Source: a virus
IMG/VR virus record: IMGVR_UViG_3300033145_000668
Location: 31,175 to 95,174 of that record
Direction: 5' to 3' (one strand)
DNA: 64,000 nt
The notes beneath the pieces were generated by a model. That model ran no database searches. It had not been told where the DNA came from and worked only from the letters and a program-made list of their open reading frames with translations. Below are positions 30,469-63,238 of this stretch, in pieces; the first letter of the stretch is position 1, and the number at the start of each line of letters is the position of its first letter. Made by a program: the position numbers and the translations under genes.

Positions 30469-32700
30469 TTACATTTCATTTGAATCTAGGTAACTATTTC
30501 CTGCCTCGTTTATCATTATCATTGTATTTCTTCCAGATTCAAAAGTTCCTATTAATTCTAAATCTATTAATTGTTTTATCATTTTTGACCTCATATTCGA
30601 TGTCTTTATTTTGAATCTATTTTCTAGTTCATAATGCATTTGCATTTTTGGCATGCTGCCCTTTAATGATAATAATTTTAAGATAGAAAACTTTATTTTT
30701 TTATCTTTATTTTGACTAGTAACTAAAATCTTAATACTATCAATACACTCCATAATAATATTATAACAACTTTTAATCATTTTTTTCTCTATTAGTGTTT
30801 GTTTTCTCCAAACAGCATCCAGCACACATAATTTATATAAATGAACACTTTCTCTTCTAACCATTGAATTTAAAATTTCTTTATCTATTGCCATAAATTC
30901 ACTATAATTTGCTTCAGCTATTTCCCACAAGTCATCAACAAAATTATCACTACCAGCTTCAAATTTAAAATCTTTTTTATTTTCTTCATACCATTTTTTC
31001 ATATCTCTTAATTTTTCTAATAATTTCATAATGTATTTTTCTTTATTAAAACTTTTTTCCGTCTTAGTATTAAATTTAGATTTAACAATATGCTTTCTAA
31101 TTACTTTATGGTCAACGTCTGTTAAATCTTTTAAGTAAAAAATAGCTCTTTGAAACAATCCATTATGTAAAATAGCATTTACAATATTATCCATTTTATA
31201 AGTTGTTAAAACTATTGAAGTATTTGTTGTAACAGGAATACTATAACCGGCAACTCCTTTTTCAATTCTTCTCGACTTATCCATAGCTTGTCTTAAAATA
31301 ATTTGAACGTGTTTATTATGCGCTCCTGGTCTAAAAATACTTTCTGATTCTGACAACGCTAACCAATGAGTATTTTCTAACCAACCTTTTTCAATTGGAT
31401 TTTTATAAGTCTTACTACCATTAATTTGATTTTCTTCTGTTAATCCGTTTTTGGTATTAAATTCTACAGCTACTTGATTTACCGCACCTAATAATGTTCT
31501 ATCTGTAACTTCGGCTGGTCTTTTTGTAATATATTTTAATCGCTCTAATATTTCATTAATTAAATTAACACCCTCATCTTTTCCAGAAGTAGAATATGAA
31601 GAAAAAATTAAATGAACTCTTAAGTCGTCTTGTTTTTCATCTAATATGGTTCCTAATAAATTATAAAAGCAAAGTTCTTTCCAAACAGGTTGTTGAGCAA
31701 TACTATTATCCCAAATCTTATCCCATAATTGTTTAATAGTATAAAAATCAATAATTTCTTCACCGTTATTTAGTTCATACATAACAGGATAATCGTGTTC
31801 AATAGACCACTGAACCATTTCTGATTTATTATATTCTGTTATTTGACCGTCCATTGCTTTATCAACCCAACCCATAAACTCACCTACATTTTTCCCAGGA
31901 CAATTTTCTACTATTTTTTGAGCATAATTTGTAGCTATTTCATCTTTTGTTAAACCGCTTAATACTAATCCAACAGCTAGATTTTTGAACAGCGTGTTGT
32001 TTCTATCTCCGTTTTCTATCATATTATTCATCGCGTATTTTAAATAAGGGTCGTTTAAATGAAAGTCGACTATTATCTTCTTATTTTCTATTTGCTGTAC
32101 TTTTTTATTTTCAATATCTTTTTTACAATATTCAATTATTTCTTCATCAATTAAATTTTTTTCATTTGTGTTTACTGTATCATATAAATATTTTTCTTTT
32201 CCTGTTTTTAAGTGTTTAGAATATTCAAGAGCTAACCATTGATTTTCTTTCGCTAGTTTTTCATCTGTTCTAAAATATGTAATTATATATTTTCTTATTC
32301 TGTTTCTTAAATCTAAATCCAATTTTGCAAAATTGTCAAATAATATAGATATATGATAACCTCTCGAGCCAGTGTCCCAAATTACATAACTCCAATTTTT
32401 TTCAGTTAACTTTGTTTGAATATCATGTATTTTATATTTTTCCTCGACATCTAAAATTATTTCGTTTTTAAAACTTTTTCTTAAATTTATTTCAATTTTT
32501 TCATCTTCTGATAATTCAGAAATAATCTTTTCAGAAATCCATCTATTTTTATGTTTGCATTTTTTACAAACACCATAGGTATCTAAATCGGCTGACTTAC
32601 AACCATTACATACTTTACTATTATACATAACTTTCATTTCAGAATTCTCTTTAAGTATTTTCCTTAAAAAATTCTCTTTAAGTTTTTTATAATTAGTCAT
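30469..32700 (-). CDS. Primase (AEP)-helicase fusion with MCM-like AAA+ and winged-helix C-terminus
   Basis: AEP 'ILDVE', 'TGSRGYH', 'HLKTG'; PriCT-like 'GDRNNTLF'; 'STSGKD', 'LRQAMD', 'GLFQR'. Confidence 0.7.
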   Translation of the reverse strand: MTNYKKLKENFLRKILKENSEMKVMYNSKVCNGCKSADLDTYGVCKKCKHKNRWISEKIISELSEDEKIEINLRKSFKNEIILDVEEKYKIHDIQTKLTEKNWSYVIWDTGSRGYHISILFDNFAKLDLDLRNRIRKYIITYFRTDEKLAKENQWLALEYSKHLKTGKEKYLYDTVNTNEKNLIDEEIIEYCKKDIENKKVQQIENKKIIVDFHLNDPYLKYAMNNMIENGDRNNTLFKNLAVGLVLSGLTKDEIATNYAQKIVENCPGKNVGEFMGWVDKAMDGQITEYNKSEMVQWSIEHDYPVMYELNNGEEIIDFYTIKQLWDKIWDNSIAQQPVWKELCFYNLLGTILDEKQDDLRVHLIFSSYSTSGKDEGVNLINEILERLKYITKRPAEVTDRTLLGAVNQVAVEFNTKNGLTEENQINGSKTYKNPIEKGWLENTHWLALSESESIFRPGAHNKHVQIILRQAMDKSRRIEKGVAGYSIPVTTNTSIVLTTYKMDNIVNAILHNGLFQRAIFYLKDLTDVDHKVIRKHIVKSKFNTKTEKSFNKEKYIMKLLEKLRDMKKWYEENKKDFKFEAGSDNFVDDLWEIAEANYSEFMAIDKEILNSMVRRESVHLYKLCVLDAVWRKQTLIEKKMIKSCYNIIMECIDSIKILVTSQNKDKKIKFSILKLLSLKGSMPKMQMHYELENRFKIKTSNMRSKMIKQLIDLELIGTFESGRNTMIMINEAGNSYLDSNEM

Positions 32701-35914: not shown

Positions 35915-38489
35915 TCATTTTACTTTATCAGATACACAAACTTTAATTCCAAATATTTCCATAATTTCTTTATTTTCTATTTTATTATTAGTTTCTACAA
36001 TGAAATCATTCATCCATCTCATACCTTTTTCTTTGAGTTTAATTTCTTGGGCTCCTAAATCATTTCCTGTTATTATTTGATAATCGTCCTCATATAAAAT
36101 TCTAAGTGGCTCTAATCTTAGATAAGCCATTGCTTGTTGTACATCGGCAATGGTTAAAATGTTATTCATTTTCTATATCTGTACCGTGTTCTTCTTTTAG
36201 ATGTTTAATTAAATCTACCCAAGTTTTTCCATAATCATGACTTACGCAAAGAACTCTATTTATATGTTTATATATTCTTCTTGAATATGCCATTACTCTT
36301 TCTTCGCTTTCTTTATTTTATCTTCAAACATTTCATCTATTACTTTAACCATTTCAGTTAAGTCTGTTCCGTCTGGAGCGTTTCTTGCAATCATTCCTAT
36401 TGACATCCAAAATGTTTTTTGTAAGTTTTTTATTTCTTCTTTTGTTTCATCCATTGGTTTTATCCTCCCTTTCAATCTTTTCACATGAACCCCATTGTAA
36501 TTCTTTAAAAATAGCAATGTTTTCTTTTCCAAATTCTTGAATTATAGTGTCTTCGATTATTACTGTATTATATTCGCCACAATGTTCACAAGGGTCTTTC
36601 ATTAATATTTTACCATCGTGTAAAAATTCACAACCTATTGTTAATGCACTCATTGCACATTCTCCTAATTTGGTTTGTGAAATAGTATCTTTTCCACAAT
36701 TTGGACATTTGTAAATAAAGTTGTCATACATTCCCATTATTCTTTTACCTCATTTTGTAACCAATATAATACATCATAATCTGCACTAATATTTGTCATT
36801 ATTTCAGTTTTTTCTTCAACATCATACGTTGGAACATTTAGATGTTTAAACATTTCATAATCTTTTGGTTCTAAATCATTGCATATTATATCTGTTGCAT
36901 TGCTTGCTAATTTACAAACAAATTTAAATGCATTTCGTTCGTCTTCAGATTCTAAAATCATTCTTCTTTCACCTCTGTTAATTTATTAGAACAATAAGGA
37001 CAATAACTAAATGATTTTTTTAATCCTTTTGAATAACCTCTAACAACTTGCATTGTTAATGTTGATGATAATATAGGAATATTTTCTTGCCAATCTTGGC
37101 ATTTGCATTCTCTTTGTGTCATTTTATTTTTCATTACCAAAACACCCACCCTAGCGACCACCATATCAAAATGAATTGTATTATATAAGCAAATATAGCA
37201 GTAAAAATATTATGTTTACCAGCATCTTCGCCATGTTTATTTGCTATAAATAATAAACTAACGAATGATACTATATATAAAATTATTAATCCCCAAATCA
37301 TTTTATAAAACTCAAAAGGACTTCTTTTTCTATTTGCTTAATTACTTTAAAATTATCTTTATTTTTAAGACTTATTTGAGGTCGTGGTTTTACTACTCCA
37401 AACATACTATAAACTATATCTTCGAATTCAACAAACTCTTGTTCAACGCAACAAATAGTTAATTCTTTCCAAACATAATAATCATCGTGTTCAATTCTTT
37501 TTAATTCAATTATATCTTCAGGAGAATTTTTAAATGAACCTCTACTATATCCATCTTCTAAATCAAGACCAGTGCAATCACATTTACAAAAATCCATTTG
37601 GTGAGTTAGTTTGCTATTTGATATTTGGATGCTATTACAAAGTGCGCATTTCCATATTATTATTGTCATTTTATATTACTATGTATTCTATATCAATTTC
37701 TGGTAATTCAGAAACTTCTAAGTTTAAATTTATTTGTTTTATTCCTTCTATTTTATATCCGTGTTTTTTCAATACTTCTAAGATATCTTGTTCGAATTTA
37801 GTTTTATCCATTTTATATTACTCCAAAATACATCATTACTTTAATTACTACCCAACCTGAGAATAATAGTATTGATGTACTTATTACTATTCCAAAAGCC
37901 CACATTGCTTTAAATTGCCAAGGTAATTCTTTAAAAAAGTTATCCATTTTAAACTACGAATGCCAACCCCTTTACTATCAAATGAAATATAACATATAAC
38001 CACGACAATAAACCATGTAAAATAACCCATAAAATATTATTACCATTTACATAAGAAATAATTACAGCTATTAAGCTACCTAAACCAAGTCCACCTGTTC
38101 CTATATTTACTTTTGTATCACTCATTTTTTTCCTCCAATAATTCTGGACTATCGAAAGTATAACTCACATTTGTTGTAATTTCATATTCACAATCACATT
38201 CGTCGCAATAAATTGAATGTTGCCCATCGCAATAAATATCTCCGCTTTCTCCATCGTAAGGGTTTTGAGTATGTCCACACTTTGGACATCTAACTAAATT
38301 CTCGTGATTTATTTCTTCTTTATCTGTTAATCTGGTACATGAATAACATAATCTTTTTTCTCCTTTACCTAATCCAATAAATTGTTTACAGTTATCATTA
38401 CTGCATCTTTCTCCTATATCTATTTCTGCTTGATTGTATGCATCCCAATCTGTTCTTCCATCTTTTTTAAAATCGTTTATATTTGTCAT
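35915..38489 (-). other. Array of small hypothetical ORFs, several with Zn-ribbon Cys pairs (35915-36169, 36447-36737, 36737-36961, 36958-37164, 37298-37669, 38118-38489 and smaller)
   Basis: Abutting minus-strand ORFs with GGAG/GAGGT RBS and CxxC motifs. Confidence 0.55.
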
Positions 38490-39143: not shown

Positions 39144-39500
39144 TTATTGAATATTATAATTATCAATACCATTTTGTATGTTGATAATATTCATACTATT
39201 TTTAATATGATATTCCCTTAATATAAATCTTAAATCTATTTTATCTATTAAAATTTCTTTATCTTTTTCTATAATAGTTTTTTCATAATCATTAATAGAA
39301 TTTACTTTTTCTACAGAAAGAGTTCTTCTTTTTTCAATATTAGATAATTCAAGTTCTTTGGATTTTTTATATTCCAATTCTAATAGAAATGTTTCTATAG
39401 CAATTAATTTTTCATATTCTTTTTTTAATTCTTCTATTTTAAATTCTTTTTCCAAAATTTCAAGTTCTTTTTCTTTTATTTTTATATTTAGTTTTTTCAT
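39144..39500 (-). CDS. Coiled-coil hypothetical protein
   Basis: K/E-rich ORF. Confidence 0.45.
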   Translation of the reverse strand: MKKLNIKIKEKELEILEKEFKIEELKKEYEKLIAIETFLLELEYKKSKELELSNIEKRRTLSVEKVNSINDYEKTIIEKDKEILIDKIDLRFILREYHIKNSMNIINIQNGIDNYNIQ

Positions 39501-39504
39501 TTTG

Positions 39505-39690
39505 TTTGAGTAGGCCCCAGGAACGAGTATTGCTACTGATTACCCGTTCTGCCCTTCCGGTGAGAGCTCGACGGCATTTCCTGAATATGATTAGTGAATA
39601 CGTGTACTAAATCTTGAATCGACGTGCCACACGACTTAAACCTTTGCTCCAAGTTTGAAAGGTCCAAGCCGAACGGGACGTCGGGATTTG
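39505..39690 (-). ncRNA. Structured RNA A (overlaps the 3' end of ORF 39533-40123)
   Basis: GC-rich island; minus-strand stems with G-U pairs (GGCUUGGACCUU/AAGGUUUAAGUC; GAACGGGUA/UACUCGUUC); shares an 18/19-nt linker with RNA B. Confidence 0.55.
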
Positions 39691-40123
39691 GTTGAATATT
39701 TGGTTGAATATTTGGTTTTTTATTATCTGGTACGTTAAATATCTGACATATTTCGTCCACCATTTTAACAAAATCTATTGGTATATCTGACATTAAATCT
39801 TTTAATCGATGAGCATTATCAGCGTGATTATCCACATCCACAGGTATATGCTCTTCTTTATTTTCTTCCCCTGTTTTGCTTCGGGTCTCCAGATAATTAC
39901 TAGTTTGAGCCTCGCAATTATCCTTTTTTCGCTGATTATTAATTTCAATTCTTTCTAATGGCTTTCCATCTAATGTTACCATTTTAGAGTTTATTATTAT
40001 ATCCATTTTTAACATTTCTAATATATTAATCATTTGACCATAATTTAATTTAGAGTCTTTTAATGTGTTTGATATTTTATCTGATACTATGTTTAGTTCT
40101 TTAATTGATTCTTGTTTATTCAT
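39533..40123 (-). CDS. Hypothetical protein with in-frame PNIQ repeat
   Basis: ORF track; the C-terminus runs into structured RNA A. Confidence 0.45.
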   Translation of the reverse strand: MNKQESIKELNIVSDKISNTLKDSKLNYGQMINILEMLKMDIIINSKMVTLDGKPLERIEINNQRKKDNCEAQTSNYLETRSKTGEENKEEHIPVDVDNHADNAHRLKDLMSDIPIDFVKMVDEICQIFNVPDNKKPNIQPNIQPNPDVPFGLDLSNLEQRFKSCGTSIQDLVHVFTNHIQEMPSSSHRKGRTGNQ

Positions 40124-40674
40124 TTTATCTTTTTTAATTTGGTCTTATTTAATTTGGTCTTGTTTAATTTAGCTGCTTCATCGAGAGCTTTGTATAGTTT
40201 ATCATTTTTATTAAATTGTTCTAACCATAAGTTTCTTTGTTCTATTGAGTCTATAATTATTTTCTTTTTTAAGTCCTCGTTAAGATGTTCTAGTTCGTGT
40301 TTAGCTCCGCTTAGTAACCGCTCATGGTATTTTAAATTATATTCTATTTTTTCTTTTTCAGTTGCGCTTGGGTTACCAATCATTATATCTGCAAACCATT
40401 TGTTTTCTATTTTATCTTTTTGCTCTTTAGGTAAGTCTGATTCTCTTACTTTATTATAAGCATGTTTCATTAGTTTTAGAAACATCTCGTTGAAGTAAGG
40501 TCCACCTGTGCAAGATTCTATGAATGAATGTCGTAATATTGTTTCAACATATCTATCAAATCCTGTTTTTGCTTGCTCTATCTTTTGTTTAAGAATTTTA
40601 ATTTCCCATTCTTCTTTTGTTTTTGGTTCTTTGTCTAACATCTTTTTTATTGTTGATTTTTTTGTTTTTGCCAT
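40120..40674 (-). CDS. Hypothetical helical protein
   Basis: ORF track, start set at MAKTKK; KLNKT repeat at the C-terminus. Confidence 0.55.
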   Translation of the reverse strand: MAKTKKSTIKKMLDKEPKTKEEWEIKILKQKIEQAKTGFDRYVETILRHSFIESCTGGPYFNEMFLKLMKHAYNKVRESDLPKEQKDKIENKWFADIMIGNPSATEKEKIEYNLKYHERLLSGAKHELEHLNEDLKKKIIIDSIEQRNLWLEQFNKNDKLYKALDEAAKLNKTKLNKTKLKKIK

Positions 40675-40675
40675 T

Positions 40676-40894
40676 TTAAAATTCACCTGCGTCATGTATA
40701 TGACTTCCTTCTTTATTATAAGCATACATCTTTAGCATTTGTCCTCGTTTGGAGTTTGAATGGTCTATTGCTTCTTCATCTGTTTCGCAGTAGCCTTCCA
40801 ACCAATCGGTTCCGTCGAAAGTGTCTACTCCAATTACGAACGGTTTGCCACATAATTCAACCGATGTATCGCCTATTTGTATTTTATTTGTCAT
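40676..40894 (-). CDS. Hypothetical protein
   Basis: ORF coupled to neighbours. Confidence 0.5.
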   Translation of the reverse strand: MTNKIQIGDTSVELCGKPFVIGVDTFDGTDWLEGYCETDEEAIDHSNSKRGQMLKMYAYNKEGSHIHDAGEF

Positions 40895-41305
40895 CTTTTA
40901 CTTTTGTCCATTTACTTGTATATTCTTCATTTTCATATAATCCTAATTCAAACGATTGAGTTGATAATATGATTTGTAATACTGTTTCAGTTTCTTTATG
41001 TAGATTAGTCATATAATCATATATTTCTTCAGGTATTTCAAAATCTTCTATATCTATTTTGTATTCTTTTCCATTTATTTTCCATTTATTTTCCATTTAT
41101 TTTCCATTTATTTTCCATTTATTTTCATAACTGTTTCTGGTTTACCATATAATATTTCAAACATGTCTTCAAGCACTCCTGAATTACCATAAGGTCTCTT
41201 TGGGTTTATTTCTGGTGCTCCAAATTCACAATCTTGCCATCCTACATTTGCTTTTTTTAAAAGAGTTAAATGTTCTTGTTTTAATTCGAATTGTTTATTT
41301 GTCAT
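40884..41305 (-). pseudogene. Single gene split into two ORFs (41108-41305 and 40884-41096) by an 11-nt tandem expansion
   Basis: With one repeat copy the frames fuse: ...ETVMKINGKEYKIDIEDF... Confidence 0.7.
41071..41125. repeat. Tandem repeat (CCATTTATTTT) x5
   Basis: Read directly from the sequence. Confidence 0.95.
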
Positions 41306-41404
41306 TTTAATTAATATATCCTTGTTCTTTCAAACATTCCTGCTATTGATAACACTTTGAATTGGATTACTCGATTACTCCTATTACTCCTATTATATTT
41401 GCCA

Positions 41405-41911
41405 TTATTTCTTTACCTTTCTCTTTTTCGTTTTAGTTTCTTTCTTTATTGGATGTTCTTTAATATATTTGTCTAGCTTTTCTTTTAACTCTCTTGTTTC
41501 TGATAATTGGTAAGAGGGTTTGAAATCGTGATTTTGATTGTATTGATTAAGACAATGATTTATTTCAATTCCTTCAACATCGTTTAAGTCTTCGAATGTC
41601 ATTATTACTTTATCTTCTGGATAGAAATATTTGTAGTATCCTTCGTTGTAACAACCGCACTCGGCGCAATATGTTGATAGTCCTATTTCCGTTAAACGGA
41701 ATTGCCGGTCTTCTTTATAATACATCACGCCGAAACCATCAAACTCTTCTACTATTATTCCATACCTTGGTTCGATGTAGAATAGGTTTGAGTGACAGTT
41801 ATTGCACATTGTTAATTGTTCTTGAGTTGAAAGTCGCCAGCCACTGTCTTGAAGCTCGATGCTATCCGGCGTAAGGATTAGCTTTGGTATCCGCTCTTTT
41901 TCTTTTATCAT
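41405..41911 (-). CDS. Hypothetical Zn-finger protein, first gene of the leftward unit
   Basis: CNNC and CAECGC; ATG at 41911 about 21 nt after TATA at 41933-41940. Confidence 0.6.
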   Translation of the reverse strand: MIKEKERIPKLILTPDSIELQDSGWRLSTQEQLTMCNNCHSNLFYIEPRYGIIVEEFDGFGVMYYKEDRQFRLTEIGLSTYCAECGCYNEGYYKYFYPEDKVIMTFEDLNDVEGIEINHCLNQYNQNHDFKPSYQLSETRELKEKLDKYIKEHPIKKETKTKKRKVKK

Positions 41912-42086
41912 AATTAATATAGAATTATTAGTTTTATAAATGTATTTATTGTGGATTATATATAATTTATTGTATTTTGATTGTGATTTTCGGGTGTTTG
42001 ATTGTCCTATATTTGTCATGAAAAATTTGCTTCTATTGTGTCCATTTTTCGAGATGCGATTTTGATTTGATTTATCCTTCATTTAT

Positions 42087-42421
42087 TCCAATTTATCCTT
42101 GATTTACCGAATCATGGTCTCAATTTATTATTTATCGCGGGCTTATACTTTTTTTTCTTAGTTTTAGATTTGTTTTTTAAATAAATTGGAATTAAAAAGA
42201 GTATAATACTAATAGAGCTCATATTAGCGCGAGATATCGCAATTCCTATTTATTATTTGAAATAAATTGGAGATAAATTGAACCCCCGGGTTACATGCTT
42301 AGTATATAAAGGCTTGCTTTTTTAATTCCAATTTATCTCCAATTTATCAAAACGATGGAAAGCTTTATAAATAGGCCACAGTTTCATTTATCGTTCATTT
42401 ATCGCCGAAAAATAAATTGGA
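42087..42421. repeat. Iteron-like ATAAATTGGA repeats in both orientations (candidate replication origin)
   Basis: Forward at 42181, 42262, 42412; reverse at 42087, 42327, 42338; extra partial copies; lies at the coding-strand switch. Confidence 0.7.
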
Positions 42422-42556
42422 ATAAAATTATTAATTTTAAAATAATCATCAATAATATAATTAATACTTTTATCATGGCCGTCATTTTCGTCTCTCAACT
42501 GTGGCCGCGATTTCGCGTAATTTTACCACATTTTGATTGGCCTTTATTTGTTATCG

Positions 42557-42777
42557 CGAATCAGTAAGAGAATATCAATAGAATTGGTAAACTTTATTGA
42601 TAATCTGCTACTGATTCGTATTAAATATAAAACCAGCAGGGATATGTTTACGTGTGCAAGTGGTTTCCCCCAGAAAGATTTTCCTATCCTTCTGTTGCTG
42701 GTTGAGTATGATTAGTGAATAGTACCGGGAACGCAATTAATAGTCGCACGCGCGTTAAACACATCAACGACGTTCCC
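42557..42777 (-). ncRNA. Structured RNA B, immediately downstream of a tRNA-like element
   Basis: Stems GGGAACG/CGUUCCC and AACCAGCA/UGCUGGUU, long terminal hairpin 42557-42618, linker shared with RNA A. Confidence 0.55.
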
Positions 42778-42847
42778 CGTAACGAATCGGATTTGAACCG
42801 ATGTATCGGGTATCTCCCGCGCACTTACCAGGCTGTGCTATCGCTAC
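42778..42847 (-). tRNA. tRNA-like element with shortened anticodon arm (no assignable anticodon)
   Basis: Acceptor GUAGCGA/UCGUUAC; D arm GCAC-AGCCUGGUAA-GUGC; CGGG-AGAUA-CCCG in place of the anticodon arm; T arm AUCGG-UUCAAAU-CCGAU; TTTAAATA box ~25 nt upstream. Confidence 0.75.
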
Positions 42848-42967
42848 CTATATTATACATAGGAAAAGTGAGTATTTAAATGCTTGCCCTCTCTACTAAT
42901 GGCCACTCTATTACGGAAATCTTTATAAGTGGCTTTGTCCTTATAATATTGATTTATGAAATCCCAA

Positions 42968-43065
42968 TTTTGGAATTTGGATTTTGGATTTTGGAATTTG
43001 GATTTTGGAATTTGGAATTTGGATTTTGGATTTTGGATTTTGGATTTTGGATTTTGGATTTTGCA
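42968..43065. repeat. Heptamer tandem array (WTTTGGA) x13 plus one degenerate unit
   Basis: Read directly from the sequence. Confidence 0.95.
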
Positions 43066-44257
43066 AATGTGTTTATTGAATTTAACATCGTCAGCGCTTA
43101 TATAGTATAATCATTGAGCGTATAGTATAATTTATAGGAAGAGCGATAGTATGCTGATGAGTGTTGTTCACTATGCATCCTCACAAAGAGATACAATTTT
43201 TTGCATCGTAAACATAGTTATTTGACGTTTTTTTATATAATATGATAATTATATCGATTGTTTTAAAATAATCTTTAAACAATTTAAAAATAATTTTTTC
43301 AATTTTTTTGGTTGTGAGGGTTTGAGAGGATTTTAACATAAAAATACATATAAATTTTGGTGAGGGTTTTGGACGATTTATACATATAAACACATATACC
43401 TATTGTTTACTTGGATATGTGATGTTCCAGTATACATGTTCGGTTCATCATATATGTTCCACTAAGTGACCACATCATAAGGATATTTCTATACTTACTC
43501 ATTTAGAGGTTATACTCCAAAGGAGAAAGGAAAACAATGTTTATAAACACCTGTATATTCTAACATACGCTTCCTATGGCCATAACATTTATAACTAACT
43601 ATGGTCTTATTCTTATTATGGAAACAAAAATATTTGAAGAAATGGAAGAAGAAATTTGGAAGTTGACAAAAAAATTAAATAAGTTATTATTTGATTTTGA
43701 AGACGAACCTAAACTTAGTTTAGAAGTTGTAGACTATTTAAATGAGGGAGGTAAATAAATGGATGAATATGAATTTGAGTATAGTGTTGAAGGTTTAGAT
43801 GAGCATATACAACTTTTGAAAGATTGTGTTAAGAATAAAGTTGATATACTTATTCACAACGAAGAAGAAGAGTGGTTTGTGTTGGGAGAACAAAAAGTTG
43901 TTATTTATAGTATGTTTGAAAGATATGGAGATGTGGATAGAGAAAAAATAACAATTGATGAGTTGATTGAAAAATGGGAAGAAGAAAAGAAAGAATTGGA
44001 AGAAGAAGAGAGATTGGAAAATATAAGAGAAGTGAGTGTAGATGAACATAAACAAATGCATTAATTAAATCACAATAGATTTTTTTTACTCGAATTCTCA
44101 AGTATATAAACCTTTTGGTATCCCTCTCCAATGATACTTTTTCTTTGTCATTCTATAATGAATACAAACATTTATAAACAAAAGGATGATAGTGTTTCTT
44201 TATAAAGATATGGAAAGATTTATAAATAAAAAACATGTCTGTTTGAGGACACATACC

Positions 44258-58128: not shown

Positions 58129-58266
58129 ATGAAAATAACAAAAAAACTAGTGAAAATAGGAGATAGTATTGGTATCATTATTGATAAACCAATACTTGAA
58201 AAAATGAAATTGAAAGAAAAAGATTTAGTTGAAATAAATATTAAAATAGTTGAAAATGAAGAATAA
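58129..58266 (+). CDS. AbrB/MazE-like DNA-binding protein, not in the ORF track
   Basis: MKITKKLVKIGDSIGIIIDKPILEKMKLKEKDLVEINIK...; TTTAAATA box upstream. Confidence 0.75.
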   Translation: MKITKKLVKIGDSIGIIIDKPILEKMKLKEKDLVEINIKIVENEE

Positions 58267-58930
58267 AGGTTCTTGGAAGAAAGGTCATGTCCCTTGGAAT
58301 AAAGGTAAAAAGTATAAATTAGAAGAAATTCATAGTAAAGAAAAAGCTGAAGAAATAAGAATAAAAATGAGAGACTCCATGGTAGGTAAAAAGCACACAG
58401 AAGAAGCAAAAGAAAAAATGAAAAAAACTTATAAAGAAAAATATGAAACCGGATATGAAAATAATAGAAAAGGAAAAGAAACACCAGAATCTACTAAAAT
58501 AAAATTAAGTAAAGCAAATAAAGGTCGCAAACCTTGGATAACTGGCGGTCACCATACGGAAAAAACTAAAGAAAAAATAAGTAAATCTAAAATTGGAAAT
58601 AAACATACAGAAAAAGCAAAAATGAATATGAGAATATCAAGATGTAATTATATAAAAAAGGTTGGTGGACCTACGTTTGGCAAAAACGAAACTCAAATAC
58701 TAAATGAATTTGAATTATCTAATGGTATTAAGTTGATAAGGCAATATAGTATCGTAGGATATTTAATAGATGGATGTTGTAAAGAATTGAATTTAGTGGT
58801 TGAAGTTTATGAAAAGTTTCATGAAAATCAAAAAGAAAAAGATGAAAAAAGAAAACAAAAAATAATAAATAAATTAAATTGTGATTTTGTAATAATAGAA
58901 GATAATTTTGATAACGAGAGGACAAAGTGA
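58250..58930 (+). CDS. NUMOD3-repeat endonuclease (DUF559/Vsr-like catalytic domain)
   Basis: 'PWNKG', repeated 'HTE..K.K.', 'RQY..GYLIDG...VEVYE..H'. Confidence 0.75.
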   Translation: MKMKNKGSWKKGHVPWNKGKKYKLEEIHSKEKAEEIRIKMRDSMVGKKHTEEAKEKMKKTYKEKYETGYENNRKGKETPESTKIKLSKANKGRKPWITGGHHTEKTKEKISKSKIGNKHTEKAKMNMRISRCNYIKKVGGPTFGKNETQILNEFELSNGIKLIRQYSIVGYLIDGCCKELNLVVEVYEKFHENQKEKDEKRKQKIINKLNCDFVIIEDNFDNERTK

Positions 58931-59124: not shown

Positions 59125-60246
59125 ATGAAACAAGAATTAAAAAAAATATACAAAAGAAACACAAACGGAAGTGTAAATCAATGGCAAATATTTGTTGTTG
59201 ATAATAGTTATTACACGGAAGAAGGAATATTGGATGGTAAAATAACTACATCTAAATCTAAAATAATAGTTGGTAAAAACATAGGAAGAAGCAATGAGAC
59301 AACTGATTATGAGCAAGCTATTAAAGAAGCTGAAGCTAAACAGACGAAAAAATTGGATTCTGGATATTCTGAAGACCTAAATAAAATAGATACAGCAAAA
59401 ACATTTTTCGCTCCGATGTTAGCACATAAGTACGAAAAATATAAAGACAAAATTGAATTTCCATTATTAGTATCTCCGAAGATAGACGGAGCTAGAATGG
59501 TAATTCAAGAAGATGGTTTGTTCACTAGAAACGGAAAAGAATATGTTTCGTGCCCACACATTACTGAATTATTTAAACCACTTTTCGAAAAATATCCTAA
59601 TTGGGTAATTGATGGAGAAGTATATGCTCACGATGTTTCATTTGAGAAAGTTATGAGTTTAGTTAGAAAAAGTAAACCAACTGAGGAAGATATACAAGAA
59701 TCTGAAAAGATGATTAGTATTTATATTTTTGATGGTGTTGTTGACGACACTAATTTAGGATTTGAAAAAAGGTTTGAGTTGATTAGAAAAGAAATAAATA
59801 ATATTATCGGAGAAACAGAAAAAATAAAATATGTTGAAAATAATATAATAACATCAGATGCCGAAGTAGAAAAATATCATAGTGAATTTGTTGCTGATGG
59901 TTATGAAGGACTAATGATAAGAATACCAAATTCTATTTATGAAAACAAAAGAAGTAAGATGTTGTTAAAATACAAACATTTTTTGGATGAGGAATTCAAA
60001 ATTATAGATGTTGTTGAAGGATTGGGTAATCGTTCAGGAATGGCAGGAAATCTTGTGTTAGAGATGGAAGATGGAAAAACATTTTCTTCAGGAATAAAAG
60101 GCGGAGAAGATTATTATAAATATTTATTAGAAAATAAATCTAAGATTATTGGAAAATTTGCTACAATTAGGTATCAAAATTTATCCGATAAAGATAAGTT
60201 ACCGAGGTTTCCGGTTTGTGTAGATATTGGGAGGATTGATTTATGA
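59125..60246 (+). CDS. lig: ATP-dependent DNA ligase
   Basis: 'PMLA', motif I 'SPKIDGAR', 'DGE', 'FD', 'EGLM', 'LKYK', OB tail 'PRFP'. Confidence 0.92.
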   Translation: MKQELKKIYKRNTNGSVNQWQIFVVDNSYYTEEGILDGKITTSKSKIIVGKNIGRSNETTDYEQAIKEAEAKQTKKLDSGYSEDLNKIDTAKTFFAPMLAHKYEKYKDKIEFPLLVSPKIDGARMVIQEDGLFTRNGKEYVSCPHITELFKPLFEKYPNWVIDGEVYAHDVSFEKVMSLVRKSKPTEEDIQESEKMISIYIFDGVVDDTNLGFEKRFELIRKEINNIIGETEKIKYVENNIITSDAEVEKYHSEFVADGYEGLMIRIPNSIYENKRSKMLLKYKHFLDEEFKIIDVVEGLGNRSGMAGNLVLEMEDGKTFSSGIKGGEDYYKYLLENKSKIIGKFATIRYQNLSDKDKLPRFPVCVDIGRIDL

Positions 60247-62485: not shown

Positions 62486-63238
62486 ATGAGTAAATATAAA
62501 TTAAATAAAAAATGTATTATATGCAATAAGAATATTTTAGATAAAAATAAAACTGGGTTTTGTAATAAACATAGAGATAGAACAGGAAAGAATAATCCAT
62601 TTTATGGTAAAAAGCATACAATAGAATATAAAGAAAAAGCAAGAATTAGAAGTTCTATATCGACTAAAAAACTTTGGCAAGACCCAGAATATAGAAATAA
62701 AGTTATTAAAGGAACTTCTAAACCTAGACGAGAAAAATTTAAACAGGAGCAAAGTGAAAGAATAACACAGTGGTATATAGATAATCCAGAACAAAGAGAA
62801 ATTAGAAGAGAAAAAATGAAAGAATCTTGGAAGAATGGAAAGATTACTCCAAATAAACGTGTTATTTCAAATAAAAGTAAAAAAGAAAAAAAATTATTTT
62901 TGAAAATAAAAAGATTATTTATCAACGCTGATGATAAATGTACTATACACTCCGAAACTAATTGGTTTCTTCCGGATATTTATATTGAAGATATAAACCT
63001 AATTATAGAATTTAAAGGAAATTATTGGCACGCTAATCCTAAATATTATAATGAAGACGATATTGTTCATCACAATATTATAGCTAAAGATATTTGGGAA
63101 AAAGATAATTTAAGAGAAAAAGAATTAGAAAAATTAGGTTATGAAGTATTTGTAGTTTGGGAAGATGATTATGATAATGATATAAATTATATTATTAAGA
63201 ATATAGATAGTTATAATTGGGAGAGTTGTTCAATATGA
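62486..63238 (+). CDS. NUMOD3 + Vsr/DUF559-like homing endonuclease
   Basis: 'NPFYGKKHT', 'PDIY...IIEFKGNYWH', 'LGYEVFVVWE'. Confidence 0.8.
   Translation: MSKYKLNKKCIICNKNILDKNKTGFCNKHRDRTGKNNPFYGKKHTIEYKEKARIRSSISTKKLWQDPEYRNKVIKGTSKPRREKFKQEQSERITQWYIDNPEQREIRREKMKESWKNGKITPNKRVISNKSKKEKKLFLKIKRLFINADDKCTIHSETNWFLPDIYIEDINLIIEFKGNYWHANPKYYNEDDIVHHNIIAKDIWEKDNLREKELEKLGYEVFVVWEDDYDNDINYIIKNIDSYNWESCSI

Follow-up and report, generated by a model that had tools for sequence, protein, structure and literature searches.

A short sequence block shared by two hairpin-forming stretches of an AT-rich virus: a lead to a possible RNA recognition element

Shared seeds or sites are a feature of several known RNA systems, e.g., OmrA/OmrB of E. 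coli and Qrr1-5 of Vibrio, the nutL/nutR (boxA-boxB) sites of phage lambda, putL/putR of HK022, and the RNase III sites of T7. Herpesvirus saimiri U RNAs (HSURs) represent viral Sm-class small RNAs with short conserved single-stranded motifs. In archaeal viruses, to our knowledge, virus-encoded regulatory RNAs are almost unknown. The present work concerns a 19-nucleotide (nt) block occurring twice in a 64,000-nt stretch of viral DNA (hereafter, the window), which corresponds to positions 31175–95174 of the 95,174-base-pair (bp) IMG/VR record IMGVR_UViG_3300033145_000668 (29% GC; estimated completeness 68%). The host of the virus appears to be archaeal, judging by TATA-type boxes. The two copies of the block, referred to as A and B, are harbored by two GC-rich, hairpin-forming stretches of this AT-rich genome, and they are presented here as a modest lead, not as a new RNA class.

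Copy A of the block occupies positions 39582–39600 of the minus strand (plus-strand reading TGAATATGATTAGTGAATA, RNA sense UAUUCACUAAUCAUAUUCA) and copy B positions 42703–42721 of the same strand (plus-strand reading TGAGTATGATTAGTGAATA, RNA sense UAUUCACUAAUCAUACUCA), so the two represent direct repeats 3.1 kb apart. They are identical at 18 of the 19 positions, the sole difference being one transition. On the RNA, the tetramer GUAC is situated 3 nt 5′ of the block in A (39604–39607, minus strand) and immediately 5′ of it in B (42722–42725, minus strand). A second common element, an 11-mer (plus-strand reading TGCTACTGATT, RNA sense AAUCAGUAGCA), recurs exactly at 39531–39541 and 42606–42616 (both on the minus strand); its UAG serves in copy A as the stop codon of the open reading frame (ORF) 39533–40123, and in copy B it constitutes the 5′ arm of a hairpin (hairpin 3, see below). 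A first-pass annotation, made by a model from the letters of the DNA, had reported the 19-mers at 39582 and 42703, the GTAC closely following each of them on the plus strand, and the 11-mers at 39531 and 42606, and all of these were reproduced exactly. The 19-mer and the 11-mer are separated by 40 nt in A and by 86 nt in B; because of this difference in spacing the 19-mer is read in different frames, and coding homology of A and B was rejected. The window contains only these two matches to the 19-mer at up to three mismatches, and extending the search to the entire 95,174-bp record and to four mismatches brought up no third one. The GTAC tetramer itself is scarce in the record (107 copies vs. 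approximately 255 expected, as calculated from base composition); a possible cause is selection against sites of a restriction system that recognizes GTAC. The shared block accounts for two of the 107 copies, one beside each of its occurrences.

The simplest reading of this arrangement is that of a shared RNA recognition element, since both copies are found on one strand, downstream of a TATA-like box at 42880, each following a significant hairpin and surrounded by unrelated flanks. Thus, we tentatively regard GUAC(N0-3)UAUUCACUAAUCAUAYUCA as a real, selected RNA-level recognition element of leftward (minus-strand) transcripts, at a chance somewhat short of even. The hairpins directly 5′ of the block are A hairpin 1 (39620–39683, minus strand; about 25 pairs including G-U, −30.5 kcal/mol vs. 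−22.7 on the plus strand, z −4.27) and B hairpin 1 (42725–42779, minus strand; −21.9 kcal/mol vs. −12.0 on the plus strand, z −2.05). Together with B hairpin 2, a three-way junction at 42631–42703 (minus strand; −26.5 kcal/mol vs. −23.3 on the plus strand, z −4.39), they fold better on the minus strand, as had been proposed; the neighboring genes around A and B are, without exception, encoded by this strand as well. Outside the 19-mer and the 11-mer, A and B resemble each other at the level of shuffled sequences (p 0.55 and 0.91), in agreement with the initial description of the stems as unrelated in sequence. Random similarity of the flanks suggests that the constraint operates on the block alone.

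The same repeats could alternatively operate at the level of DNA, where a viral DNA-binding protein would bind them or use them for recombination. Indeed, two direct repeats 3.1 kb apart would suit such a role, and inverted AAATAAATTGGA-type repeats are present at 42179–42348, i.e., 300–600 bp from copy B, next to which an iteron-rich divergent region may represent an origin. B hairpin 3 (42557–42618, minus strand; z −7.93) is a near-perfect inverted repeat, one arm of which is the 11-mer and the other its imperfect complement; since its plus-strand fold is, by a small margin, the more stable one (−28.2 vs. −25.7 kcal/mol), it could act as DNA or on either transcript. At the same time, the G-U pairs of the flanking hairpins work on one strand only, the block is non-palindromic, no iterons or other origin-like features are seen near A, and no recombinase was found nearby, so a DNA-level site is considered improbable.

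Irrespective of the block, the surroundings of copy B are convincing as a structured unit, which constitutes a more solid feature than the block itself. Unit B opens with a TATA-like box, TTTAAATA (42873–42880, minus strand), a candidate promoter located about 26 nt ahead of the 5′ end of a transfer RNA (tRNA)-like element (42778–42847, minus strand). The latter scores 47.8 bits against the Rfam tRNA model (threshold 29), but in place of the anticodon arm, with the 5-bp stem and 7-nt loop of a decoding tRNA, it has a stem of 4 bp closed by the 5-nt loop AGAUA, and ARAGORN made no call at 42778–42847. The element is followed by hairpins 1, 2, and 3 and by hairpin 4 (42477–42542, minus strand; z −3.03), with a folding z of −5.58 for the region 42440–42780 as a whole. 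A 13-mer from the T-arm region of the tRNA-like element, AACCGATGTATCG (42797–42809), is encountered again at 40858–40870 within ORF 40676–40894; this recurrence is probably due to chance, because about a dozen such 13-mers are common to the GC-rich islands of the record. A repeated look-alike of a TFB-recognition element (BRE)/TATA promoter, ATGGAAAG(C/A)TTTATAAATA, is present on the plus strand at 42355–42373 and 44210–44228; the former copy would drive rightward transcription through 42400–42880, antisense to unit B and its tRNA-like element.

For the favored recognition element, we infer transcription of the region, exposure of the block, and the nature of a partner along the following lines. 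Copy B would lie inside a noncoding RNA (ncRNA) of approximately 300–380 nt that is probably processed and in which the TATA-like box would be followed by the anticodon-less tRNA-like head, hairpin 1, the block, the three-way junction, and two further hairpins. The tRNA-like head lies directly ahead of the hairpins, hence RNase P and RNase Z could set the ends, with RNase Z potentially defining the 5′ end of the ncRNA at 42777. Copy A, located on that strand 3.1 kb further downstream, would represent a site on a polycistronic messenger RNA (mRNA) at the junction of two ORFs, directly after a long hairpin. In both cases, a stable hairpin 5′ of the block and a potential helix start just after it would present the block in an accessible form to a common partner. 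Most likely, such a partner would be a sequence-specific RNA-binding protein or an endonuclease, and the block its binding or processing site; the role of a base-pairing seed seems less likely.

Copy A is the weaker of the two units. An ORFan ORF for 196 amino acids (aa) (39533–40123, minus strand) covers it with its final 55 codons, and in this tail the GC content of third codon positions (GC3) amounts to 0.54, compared with 0.10–0.32 in ten comparison ORFs; this value and a poor codon score indicate that the tail is no ordinary coding sequence. Rfam showed no tRNA-like head at copy A.

Several circumstances weigh against a recognition element. The linker had been described in the first-pass annotation as single-stranded and placed between two long stems. 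Its position between two stems is confirmed for copy B only: in A, the upstream stem alone is significant, and the GC-rich 77 nt after the block (39505–39581, minus strand) are structured no better than their shuffles (z +0.57). As to single-strandedness, the predicted unpaired probability of the block is only 0.53 and 0.54 in the two copies, and its weak predicted pairing partners differ between A and B. The 11-mer occurs in opposite contexts, with an unpaired probability of 0.83 in A and of 0.10 in B, where a strong stem includes it. Copy A overlaps the ORF described above and displays no promoter-like box of its own, no candidate protein binding the block was identified, and the block is known from two copies in one genome, with no homologue found. 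A helix between GUAC...AUUC and the 11-mer was also considered; it is possible in B, but the partner sequence in A is different, so it was rejected as a shared structure.

The standing of the A/B match within the genome adds to these doubts. Taken alone, the pair is highly unlikely to be accidental: none of 2000 dinucleotide shuffles reached 18/19 (the maximum was 16/19), and the sharing of the 11-mer has a p of about 0.002. The genome-wide case is softer. In a genome with 29% GC, AT-rich 15–19-mers recur by chance, and the record contains 126 clusters of 18/19 repeats; an exact 11-mer common to two random 150-nt segments is expected with P = 0.03, and exact 15-mers are also common to two further pairs of unrelated GC-rich islands. 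In 6806 comparisons of GC-rich islands, the two-block chain of A and B was, apart from true repeats and tRNAs, the best, with a score of 26, the next ones being 24, 23, and 22. Given the abundance of 18/19 repeats, the match is genome-wide the top of a tail and no clear outlier. Depending on the counting of features recognized post hoc (GTAC, same strand, adjacent hairpin), the corrected p is estimated at roughly 0.001 to 0.07. The neighboring GTAC adds some weight, since the tetramer is rare in the record.

These figures bear on the possibility of plain coincidence, under which B would be a tRNA-like-led ncRNA, A an unrelated GC-rich ORF tail bearing a single hairpin, and the blocks devoid of function. 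The lack of further similarity between A and B, the inconsistent structural context of the 11-mer, and the absence of a third copy from the record and from the databases scanned would all be expected in this case. On the other side, the 18/19 block, the 11-mer, and the rare GTAC are collinear on the same strand beside significant hairpins, and A and B belong to the few GC-rich islands without a normal coding signal. On balance, we consider coincidence a rather unlikely explanation, though one to be taken seriously, and believe that the sharing is probably non-random.

A protein-binding or guide role had been suggested for the linker. The core of this proposal, a non-random block on structured minus-strand RNA with unrelated flanks, holds; the guide role was proposed based on a resemblance of linker B to the complement of a conserved 23S ribosomal RNA (rRNA) segment, and this part found no support. 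When linkers A and B and the shared block were paired with three large-subunit (LSU) rRNAs of Methanobacteriaceae, a single archaeal family that may not be that of the host, 25–98% of shuffled linkers performed equally well or better. The segment reads GAUAGCGUACUAGUACCG in these three rRNAs, leaving only about 8 nt of copy B pairable, mostly outside the shared block. A role of the block as an rRNA guide is not supported by these pairings, and a seed directed to 23S rRNA appears very improbable.

More generally, A and B could be two sibling trans-acting small RNAs (sRNAs) using the block as a seed for pairing with host or viral RNA, and the location of the block between hairpins in B is compatible with this. 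The best pairing site for the block in the record, GAAUGUGAUU-GUGAAUA at 38177–38216 (minus strand), offers a duplex of approximately 17 pairs that includes a single bulge and a single G-U; it resides on the strand of A, 1.4 kb further downstream, inside ORF 38118–38489 coding for a Cys-rich, 123-aa protein. The block alone pairs with this site at −19.1 kcal/mol and the extended linker of A at −22.9 kcal/mol; none of 12 shuffled motifs reached −19.1 kcal/mol, the best of them attaining −17.8. Pairing with the linker of copy B is much worse (−15.4 kcal/mol). Sibling sRNAs should each possess their own promoter and a defined 3′ end, but a TATA-like box is seen at B and none at A, which sits in the tail of an ORF and lacks a structured 3′ end.

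On the host side, searching GTDB genomes for the 19-mer yielded eight scattered matches, which is about the number expected by chance. One of them, in a metagenome-assembled genome (MAG) of Methanobacteriaceae (G002:C6:33799-33817; L218 1799-1817), is an exact 19-mer complement target reaching from the four final codons of a class-III aminotransferase gene across its stop codon into 4 nt of the 3′ untranslated region. Still, in 101 genomes of the family, matches with up to two mismatches were about as frequent for a reversed control pattern, and the MAG exhibited no other link to the virus. Since the site is not conserved in the family and the MAG shares nothing else with the virus, this candidate host target was rejected as a chance match. 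Taken together, a trans-acting seed is assigned a low probability, and a recognition element read by a protein remains our preferred interpretation.

The affiliation of the block with known RNA classes was considered as well. The first-pass annotation mentioned an Sm-like protein encoded by the virus; this was not supported, no match to PF01423 (Sm/LSM) being found at E ≤ 0.1 in the six frames of the 95-kb record, 68% complete, and the block lacks the U tract of Sm/Lsm-bound RNAs. On its transcribed strand, a box C/D sRNA has a C box (RUGAUGA) toward the 5′ side, a D box (CUGA) toward the 3′ side, and guides of 10–12 nt; here, UGAUUA-like and CUGA motifs occur on the plus strand only, with D preceding C at distances of 40 and 86 nt, whereas folding favors the minus strand, so this candidate was rejected. 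Inspection by eye in terms of a bulge-helix-bulge motif, a kink-turn, an H/ACA RNA, or an anticodon loop revealed no fit for the block. No family of Rfam 15 covers A or B at the gathering threshold, only tRNA matches having passed it; at E up to 10, the search of 39300–43200 returned in addition microRNA (miRNA) models and C0465, far below threshold, on hairpin 3 and nearby AT-rich sequence.

Homologues of the block were sought in several collections. In IMG/VR, a 14-mer of the block gave chance matches only, in which the context was absent, and the 15-mer with GTAC gave none; 11 context-free matches of the latter were found in metagenome contigs. A blastn search of A and B against the INPHARED phages returned no match. 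Searches for close relatives with four proteins of the virus (201, 225, and 196 aa, and PolB) returned nothing, ORF196 and ORF225 being ORFans among 5.8 billion proteins. The nearest relatives of PolB are 42–48% identical and reside mostly on Logan contigs; the single relative from IMG/VR (40 kb) carries no tRNA and no motif, and 1.0 Mb of PolB-related loci contain no copy of the block at up to three mismatches. In 314 Methanobacteriaceae genomes, no close homologue of PolB was detected, and blastn of unit B in 151 of these 314 matched its AT-rich tail only. Hence, since the block is known from two copies in a single genome and homologues were not found in IMG/VR, the metagenome contigs, GTDB, INPHARED, or the PolB loci, the initial proposal of a new ncRNA class was not sustained. 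As a side observation, several of the PolB relatives (P0004, P0006, P0008, and P0009) are 1138–1562 aa long and match in two to three separate stretches, suggesting the existence of intein-containing polymerases in related viruses.

The genome carrying the block is rich in genes related to RNA repair. It features an array of 15 tRNAs at the start of the record, and Pfam matches include a class-II CCA-adding enzyme, Thg1, and an RNA ligase (PF09414). Pfam also confirms an ATP-dependent DNA ligase (PF01068 plus OB domain; 59125–60246, plus strand) and two homing-endonuclease-like genes combining NUMOD3 and DUF559 (Vsr-like) domains (58250–58930 and 62486–63238, plus strand), situated amid the genes of the CCA-adding enzyme, the DNA ligase, and Thg1. 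The presence of the RNA-end enzymes (CCA-adding enzyme, Thg1, and RNA ligase) speaks in favor of a recognition element, although these genes have no direct tie to the shared block. A bolder view would place A and B in an undescribed RNA family of archaeal viruses whose members display the same exposed sequence of 19–23 nt between unrelated hairpins, one of them fused to an anticodon-less tRNA mimic; this sequence would be a common docking or cleavage signal tying the viral RNAs to the CCA-adding enzyme, Thg1, and the RNA ligase, or to a sequestered host factor. This view seems unlikely.

A block confirmed as a recognition element would provide a short handle in the form of a 19-nt bait for pull-down and a site for mutagenesis, potentially showing how a virus loaded with tRNA-repair genes organizes or processes its own RNAs. 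With two copies in one orphan genome, it is valuable as a lead linked to the better-founded unit B.

Among the described systems, unit B is reminiscent of the tRNA-miRNA-encoded RNAs (TMERs) of murine gammaherpesvirus 68 (MHV68) and of MALAT1-mascRNA in that a non-decoding tRNA-like head is combined with hairpins directly after it. The likeness is limited to B, as A possesses no such head; in contrast to the TMERs, the downstream hairpins of B are no miRNA precursors, the matches to miRNA models being weak and far below threshold. The HSURs are comparable in having a short conserved motif common to viral RNAs, but the block has no U-rich Sm site and no gene with an LSM domain was found in the record.

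The bacterial and phage Y RNAs bound by Ro60, e.g., YrlA (PMC4201824), are likewise ncRNAs with a tRNA-like module and invite comparison with a genome rich in tRNA-repair genes. YrlA has its tRNA-like domain in the interior, and its two ends form the stem bound by Ro60 (PMC4201824), whereas the tRNA-like part of unit B is 5′-terminal; there is no match to Y RNA or YrlA in Rfam and none to the TROVE domain (PF05731) in the record, so a Y RNA was rejected.

The closest parallels concern the block itself. Like OmrA/OmrB and Qrr1-5, A and B belong to one genome, have the same orientation, and share a near-identical short block while being otherwise divergent. Unlike A and B, those siblings each have a promoter and a terminator and are similar in length and fold; neither a promoter nor a terminator is seen at copy A, the folds of A and B differ, the siblings come from another domain of life, and no chaperone gene was found here. 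With the nut, put, and T7 RNase III sites, the block has in common a short conserved linear motif beside hairpins, repeated on viral transcripts and presumably serving one reader protein or machine; there is no similarity of sequence or structure, and in our case the host is apparently archaeal and the function putative. By the simplest reading, then, the block would work like the repeated RNA sites of phages or in the manner of a seed common to sibling sRNAs, yet be a member of neither group.

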